IMG/VR virus record: IMGVR_UViG_2534681832_000017
Coordinates: 1-37,193 of that record
DNA length: 37,193 nucleotides
DNA from: a virus
Lineage: Duplodnaviria > Heunggongvirae > Uroviricota > Caudoviricetes
Direction: 5' to 3' (one strand)
Part shown: one piece after another, positions 19,183-19,248 of the stretch
Numbering within the stretch: position 1 is the stretch's first letter
Layout: each line of letters begins with the position of its first letter
Made by a program: the position numbers and the translations under genes
Notes under the pieces: model-generated
The model's input: only the letters and a program-made list of their open reading frames with translations
Databases searched by the model: none
Told to the model about the DNA's origin: nothing

Positions 19183-19248
19183 ATTGCTCTAATAATTCCA
19201 TATTTTTAAAACGTGATGTACACTCATCACGTTTTTTATTAGAGCAAT
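19183..19248. promoter_or_regulatory. inverted pair of C1-type operators flanking a perfect hairpin
   Basis: ATTGCTCTAATAATTCC (19183-19199) and inverted TTTTTTATTAGAGCAAT (19232-19248); hairpin ACGTGATG-TACACT-CATCACGT (19211-19232) between A- and T-runs. Confidence 0.5.

Follow-up and report, generated by a model that had tools for sequence, protein, structure and literature searches.

Two inverted copies of a 17-bp sequence enclose a short hairpin between pmgQ and pmgR (positions 19183-19248) in the DNA analysed here, a stretch of 37,193 bp that we call the window. The question raised by this locus is whether these two copies, and the similar 17-mers scattered through the rest of the window, are operators of a C1 repressor like that of phage P1. 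C1 binds to an asymmetric 17-bp site; its binding is strengthened by Lxc, and it is inactivated by Coi and by the Ant1/Ant2 antirepressor. Mapping of the C1 operators of P1 goes back to the late 1980s. Twenty-two C1 operators are dispersed over P1, and the published 17-bp asymmetric consensus is ATTGCTCTAATAAATTT (PMC8546580).

Megablast of window 17000-22000 against a phage collection returned phage P1 (AF234172, AF234173, NC_005856) at 99.0% identity over the full query, and also P7, RCS47, SJ46 and other punaviruses. The backbone genes are ordered dmt, tRNAs, ban, dbn, tail genes 5-26, pmg genes, ppp, pap, hot, humD, phd-doc, pdcB, lpa, pacA and pacB, and the closest relatives in the phages, plasmids and complete E. 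coli genomes searched were 95-98% identical and mosaic. Judged from these alignments, the window is a P1-like phage-plasmid with a mosaic backbone. Some backbone features were not those of P1. Four tRNA genes were found at 4480-4724 and 6314-6386, where three are annotated in P1 (Asn, Thr, Ile); the additional 84-nt tRNA (4561-4644) is the counterpart of the tRNA-Tyr annotated in plasmid p88_1577-1. The dmt open reading frame (765-3806) encodes 1013 aa, likewise in p88_1577-1, against 754 aa from the P1 dmt coordinates, that is, a methyltransferase about 260 residues longer than that of P1. The pmgT-hot segment (about 22270-29400) was unlike P1 and had no strong C1 operator inside; in relatives this segment carries ead/Ea22-like, DUF551, ASCH and further small genes.

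The sequence-only reading of this DNA had proposed that C1-operator-like 17-mers are scattered through the window, and two independent counts showed that they are, far above the chance expectation for P1-type C1 operators. With up to three mismatches allowed, ATTGCTCTAATAAATTT matched the window 10 times (3797+, 3808-, 9079+, 9095-, 15560-, 19183+, 19232-, 21324+, 35550+ and 36550+), while dinucleotide shuffles averaged 0.11 matches and never exceeded 2. For the second count, a position weight matrix (PWM) was trained on 11 P1 operators from outside the window-homologous part of P1, which avoids circularity (Oref, Omat, Ossb, Oc4, OrepL, Orlf and Oc1a-e). This independent matrix scored 11 window sites at 20.6-27.1 bits and one more, the Olpa site, at 12.1 bits, whereas a Markov-1 null produced on average 0.5 sites that reached 14 bits, so the matrix scan proposed as a check of the earlier claim found the motif enriched. 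The positions listed before were real sites. However, the inverted copy placed at 9096 lies at 9095-9111, and two sites on the minus strand, 3808-3824 and 16467-16483, had been overlooked; the latter has four mismatches to the consensus though it reaches 20.6 bits. The site at 32244 (ATTGCTCTAATGTGTTG) agrees with the consensus at 13 of 17 positions, and hence is outside the list with up to three mismatches, yet it is present. Weaker matrix hits of 7-12 bits (for example 1308, 6236, 8024 and 26971) were rejected as chance matches, with zero excess over the null beyond the 12 operators.

Nine of the 12 17-mers, mapped with 150-bp flanks, fell exactly on features of AF234172 annotated as protein_bind for 'phage repressor C1', namely Op72a/b, Op82, Op83, Op86a/b, Op88, Op94 and Op51. 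Obana (Op72a, 3797-3813, plus strand) is a perfect consensus of 27.1 bits which overlaps the dmt stop codon and the -35 of the annotated ban promoters, and together with Obanb (Op72b, 3808-3824, minus strand, 22.7 bits) it makes up a bivalent operator with an 11-bp offset. O26 (Op82, 15560-15576, minus strand, 24.4 bits) lies in the interval between gene 26 and pmgL, and Oppp (Op83, 16467-16483, minus strand) is found 6 nt past the pmgM stop, upstream of pmgN. OpmgT (Op88, 21324-21340, plus strand, 25.6 bits) shares its first base with the pap stop codon, whose final base it is; Olpa (Op94, 32244-32260, plus strand) precedes lpa, the gene of the late-promoter activator; and the site at 36550-36566 (plus strand, 25.9 bits) has the sequence of P1 Oc4 (Op51), and its surroundings are 96.5% identical to P1 immI. 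The focal pair corresponds to OpmgRa and OpmgRb, formerly Op86a and Op86b, designations that we base on the GenBank AF234172 annotation. Op86a (19183-19199, plus strand, 21.9 bits) begins 1 nt past the pmgQ stop, and Op86b (19232-19248, minus strand, 20.6 bits) lies inverted with respect to Op86a, with 14 nt between its end and the pmgR ATG (19263). Sequence, strand, spacing and flanking genes (pmgQ, pmgR) are the same as in P1 here, and the 317-bp context is 100% identical. The other three 17-mers, at 9079-9095 (plus strand, 25.8 bits), 9095-9111 (minus strand, 21.0 bits) and 35550-35566 (plus strand, 21.7 bits, 3 nt past the pacB stop), have no positional counterpart in P1. They head c4 modules as Op51 does, the first two being the left and right arms of a 33-bp palindromic double operator with 1 bp in common.

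This base-for-base coincidence with annotated P1 operators supported the earlier interpretation of the 17-mers as C1 operators, and we consider it very probable that the C1 repressor of a P1-like phage-plasmid has these 17-mers as its operators. It is also clear that these operators, including Op86a/b, were already known and annotated; what the sequence-only reading did was to rediscover the P1 C1 regulon. The window differs from P1 in an extra mismatch in Olpa, in the additional immI-like modules headed by 9079, 9095 and 35550 where P1 has none, and in two inserted c4 modules that separate pacB and c1, whereas c1 follows pacB directly in P1. The mismatch in Olpa (Op94) is an A>G change relative to both P1 and p88_1577-1, and it lowers the matrix score from 17.1 to 12.1 bits. 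Repression of the late-gene activator could be weaker as a result, or the change could have no effect. Two smaller observations were made during the comparison. A weak operator-like 17-mer (CTTAAAATAATAAATTA, 16456-16472, plus strand), the 11.8 bits of which are at chance level, lies 11 bp off Oppp/Op83 on the opposite strand; the arrangement has the geometry of the bivalent Op72ab/Op99ab, and CTTAAAATAATAAATTA resembles the weak Oc1b half-site. In AF234172 itself, Omat (Op2b, 2628-2645) is labelled as minus strand with 18 nt, while the operator-like reading is CATGCACTAATAAATAT on the plus strand; the strand label is apparently an annotation slip.

If the 17-mers are C1 operators, a c1 gene is expected on the element. 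None had been visible in the window, and tblastn bore this out: the best hit of P1 C1 to the window had E = 0.83, which is chance level, and the same search with Coi and Lxc gave nothing. The earlier reading had placed the regulator elsewhere on the element, and this is supported by seven colinear relatives, in which c1 lies 973 bp past the equivalent of the window end. These relatives are plasmid p88_1577-1 and six contigs with an identical simA-like protein. The p88_1577-1 sequence (NZ_CP074805.1) is 98.2% identical to window 35300-37193 and continues with ant, c1 (852 bp, minus strand) and coi. The six contigs are colinear with the final 7.2 kb of the window to its last base, and their c1, which begins 973 bp further, encodes a product assigned to Phage_P7_repressor_C1 (Pfam). 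In all seven relatives c1 encodes 283 aa, of which 281 (p88_1577-1) or 282 (the six contigs) are identical to P1 C1.100, so a P1-like operator specificity is expected. Furthermore, a matrix scan of the whole p88_1577-1 plasmid gave 27 sites at 14 bits or more, including a counterpart for every window site and, in addition, Odmt, Ossb, Oref, Omat and Oc1a-e.

The placement of the sites is that of operators at operon starts. Every site is intergenic or straddles a stop codon at the beginning of an operon, and the sites coincide with promoters of AF234172, which are mostly predictions; in that annotation, -35 hexamers lie in or next to most of these operators. Five sites had been said to stand at stop codons, and the open reading frame coordinates agree: the stops of dmt (3806), pmgQ (19181), pap (21324), pdcB (32242) and pacB (35546) are met by operators that begin at 3797, 19183, 21324, 32244 and 35550, respectively. 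Operators abut the stop of the preceding gene because the operons are packed head to tail. Often the operator core TTGCTC either serves as the -35 hexamer of the sigma-70 promoter from which an early or lytic operon starts, or directly adjoins this hexamer; bound C1 would thus shut these operons off. We infer that C1 would occupy these sites in this element during lysogeny and keep ban, the pmg operons, lpa and the c4-icd-ant modules off and, via Lpa, all late genes.

Three of the sites were said to stand upstream of c4 modules, which proved correct. The C4 antisense RNA family (Rfam RF01695) was found at 9280-9365, 35743-35830 and 36748-36833 with scores of 70.7, 75.9 and 70.0 bits, above the gathering score of 45, and homologues of Icd and Ant1 were detected downstream by tblastn. 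P1 has one c4-icd-ant module per genome; the 37-kb window has three, each headed by an operator. Module 1 (9079-10665), an insertion that separates dbn from gene 5, comprises a1/b1 targets, C4 RNA, icd and ant, its icd being 82% identical to P1 Icd and its ant 78% to P1 Ant1. Downstream of pacB (34062-35546), module 2 (35550-36019) is a remnant consisting of operator, isrK-like leader, C4 RNA and truncated icd. It is followed by the simA-like gene (35956-36480, minus strand), which lies between the two c4 modules of this region, and then by module 3 (36550-37193), where a second operator, C4 RNA, icd and the start of ant are cut by the window end. The modules at 9079 and 36550 are arranged like the P1/P7 immI region (Op51, c4 antisense RNA, icd, ant1/2), namely operator, a1/b1 targets, C4 RNA, a2/b2 targets, icd and ant. 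They differ from it in that the window has three modules with recombined recognition elements, and in that module 2 has the isrK-like leader and a truncated icd. This leader (35641-35718; Rfam RF01394, 60.8 bits) replaces the a1/b1 target region, the icd of the module (35906-36016) is truncated at about residue 46, and near 35986 the sequence becomes homologous to the simA-Op51-c4-icd-ant segment found in other P1-like phages; the post-pacB module looks like a recombination scar.

Alignment of the P1, P7 and window modules revealed that the antisense recognition elements co-vary inside each module and are recombined between modules. P1 has the a-element GTTAGTG with the b-element TTTGACAG, and P7 has GATTGTG with TTTAGCAG. 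Window module 1 combines a new a-element, GTACATG, with the P1-type b-element, and module 3 combines the P1-type a-element with the P7-type b-element. The heteroimmunity of P1 and P7 is based on c4 specificity (PMC12197685), and additional icd-ant copies had already been described in P1-like plasmids (PMC6906374). Plasmid p88_1577-1 carries five icd modules. The double operator at 9079-9111 is a near-perfect 33-bp palindrome (ATTGCTCTAATAATTTTGATTTATTAGAGCAAA) in which two C1 17-mers have one base in common; their 16-bp offset is a geometry absent among the annotated P1 operators that were compared. In IMG/VR, 16 loci have this palindromic double operator ahead of c4 modules, and what lies upstream of it falls into three different contexts. 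It may be that P1-like plasmids carry stacks of c4-icd-ant modules, several per element, each headed by a C1 operator and with antisense specificities that have been recombined, some of them with a palindromic double operator.

At the focal locus, the two operators are joined to a third element. A perfect 8-bp hairpin with A- and T-run flanks had been described between the inverted copies, and it was found exactly so, with the stem at 19211-19218/19225-19232 and the loop at 19219-19224. As a whole, the intrinsic-terminator-like hairpin occupies 19208-19237 on the plus strand, from the A-run through stem and loop to the end of the T-run at 19237. Its core folds at -10.2 kcal/mol and, with the A-U pairs, at -13.4 kcal/mol, the stem reaching 11 bp when the A/T runs are counted; the full 80-nt fold has -26.9 kcal/mol and z = -8.7. 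The foot of this G+C-containing stem-loop with its U-tract lies 27 nt past the pmgQ stop. Like rho-independent terminators, the hairpin has an 8-bp stem with four G-C pairs, a 6-nt loop and a T-run, and it stands after the last gene of an operon. Unlike them, it is embedded between operators, shares its T-run with Op86b, of which the T-run is the 3' tail, and extends over the -10/+1 predicted for the promoter that follows. Termination here is a presumed function. Both operators agree with the consensus at 14 of 17 positions and deviate at the 3' end. The hexamer TTGCTC within Op86a is annotated as the -35 of a predicted promoter, PpmgR, whose predicted -10 (TAAAAC, 19207-19212) overlaps the 5' foot of the hairpin. 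PpmgR is a prediction in AF234172, and its -10 is poor. A rule-based consensus scan of 18900-19600 found neither a promoter nor a terminator; the hairpin was likely missed because its stem runs through A/T pairs and too few T are left in the tail. An Rfam search of 19000-19450 at a permissive E-value gave as its sole hit a plant miRNA family (E = 0.24), which we rejected as spurious.

These features suggest how the junction could work. The hairpin would terminate the upstream pmgN-pmgQ transcript, with the tail of Op86b as its U-tract. C1 on Op86a would cover the predicted -35 of PpmgR and block initiation, and C1 on Op86b, which lies between PpmgR and the ribosome-binding site of pmgR, would be a second block. 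When PpmgR is free, a transcript from its predicted +1 would start inside the hairpin loop without the 5' arm of the stem, and for this reason would escape termination and read on into pmgR.

The cassette of Op86a, hairpin and Op86b was searched for in IMG/VR with a pattern of two operator cores 25-50 nt apart, and it was present in at least 119 contigs, with a core-to-core span of 64 bp in nearly all. More divergent loci were sought through PmgS homologues. In genome contigs, this search gave only two near-identical loci, and a first scan of viral contigs gave only relatives at 99-100%; a second viral-contig scan, seeded with a diverged protein, added one new lineage (L217). The more distant relative phage D6 is without the pmgQ-pmgR junction and was uninformative for the cassette. 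In three diverged lineages (L077/L213, L063/L216 and L217), where the flanking DNA is about 68% identical and PmgS is 69-75% identical mutually and to the window, the operator cores and the exact 66-bp span were kept, the sole deviation in the operator cores being C>T at position 5 of Op86a in L217. The stem changed in these lineages from ACGTGATG/CATCACGT to ACATGGTG/CACCATGT, that is, by two compensatory pairs, GC>AU and AU>GC. Among 20 distinct cassette variants, 96.8% of the cells of the inner helix were paired, with two doubly changed pairs, whereas with slid 3' partners as a control only 41-58% of the whole structure was paired. Several single stem changes among these variants remain G-U-compatible on the plus strand, so the stem is kept, as in rho-independent terminators, by compensatory and G-U-compatible changes. 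The stem therefore covaries, though both compensatory pairs are common to the three lineages and amount to few independent events, which may be only one or two in evolution. The covariation favours an element that acts at the RNA level, a terminator for rightward transcripts.

The constancy of the cassette raises the possibility that its parts are coupled: contacts between C1 bound at Op86a and C1 bound at the inverted Op86b would bend the DNA flanked by the A/T tracts or fold it into a loop, so that the promoter would be held shut, or read-through from pmgQ prevented, more firmly than by single sites. Heinzel and co-workers (1994) reportedly described C1-mediated looping between Op99 operators, which would speak for such an arrangement. 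The bivalent Op72ab and Op99ab of P1 are each two overlapping inverted 17-mers with an 11-bp offset, Op72ab itself being found at window 3797-3824. The Op86 pair resembles them in that two C1 sites stand inverted, tail-to-tail, at one promoter, but it differs in that the sites are 49 bp apart, enclose a hairpin and are annotated as two monovalent sites. The 66-bp span is kept in four lineages despite flanks of about 68% identity, and the operator tail and the U-tract of the terminator are physically one; moreover, pmgR, the next gene downstream, is counted as essential in a deletion survey (PMC10695390). However, constant spacing could simply follow from conservation of the hairpin and of each operator, 49 bp from centre to centre corresponds to about 4.7 helical turns and puts the sites out of phase, and AF234172 treats Op86a and Op86b as separate operators. 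We regard such coupling as a rather unlikely reading, and two separate C1 operators around a putative terminator as the preferred one.

Much less probable still is that the focal element is nothing but an intrinsic terminator for both directions, built on a long A/T-rich inverted repeat that resembles C1 operators by coincidence. Because the operators are inverted, either strand of the entire 66 bp can fold into one long stem-loop (-26.9 kcal/mol with z = -8.7 for one strand, -27.2 kcal/mol with z = -6.3 for the other), and the element stands directly after a stop codon. However, both arms score above 20 bits with a matrix built from unrelated P1 operators, where about zero such sites would be expected by chance, the same 17-mer stands unpaired at seven other operon starts of the window, and the arms are annotated C1 operators in P1. 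The 20 variants point the same way: arm pairs 2-13 showed a single C>T (in L217), while the inner stem was variable. The least credible reading is that the dispersed repeats are ends or scars of a small MITE-like mobile element, or recombinase sites. In its favour are the dispersal of the copies, the inverted pairing of some, and the position of others where mosaic segments meet (for example 9079 and 35550, which head inserted modules). However, target-site duplications and common internal sequence were not seen, the majority of copies stand alone and point in the direction of the operon that follows, and the pair spacings vary (11, 16 and 49 bp). By position, the sites are also orthologues of operators that have been named experimentally, and an operator that serves as a module's own promoter control, as Op51 does in P1, accounts for the occurrence of 17-mers with inserted c4 modules.

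With the 17-mers read as C1 operators, the additions to the known P1 network are modest: two missed operators, a conserved and covarying operator-terminator-operator cassette, and multiple operator-headed c4 modules. The analysis also demonstrated that a first-stage reading was able to recover a real regulon from raw sequence. Conservation of the cassette as a unit in diverged P1-like phages offers a small testable point on how P1 insulates adjacent operons. A bolder combination is put forward as a long shot, jointly with the stacking of c4 modules: Op86a, terminator and Op86b may be a single coupled switch in which two inverted C1 sites, a fixed 49 bp apart, clamp a terminator that has its U-tract in common with operator DNA and its 5' foot in common with the promoter -10. 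If this were true, C1 occupancy would govern initiation at PpmgR and read-through from the upstream operon jointly, ahead of pmgR, a gene reported to be essential. In this element, one repressor appears wired to three antirepressor modules of different antisense specificity, and if P1-like plasmids do stack c4-icd-ant modules in this manner, they could sense or resist several heteroimmune relatives.
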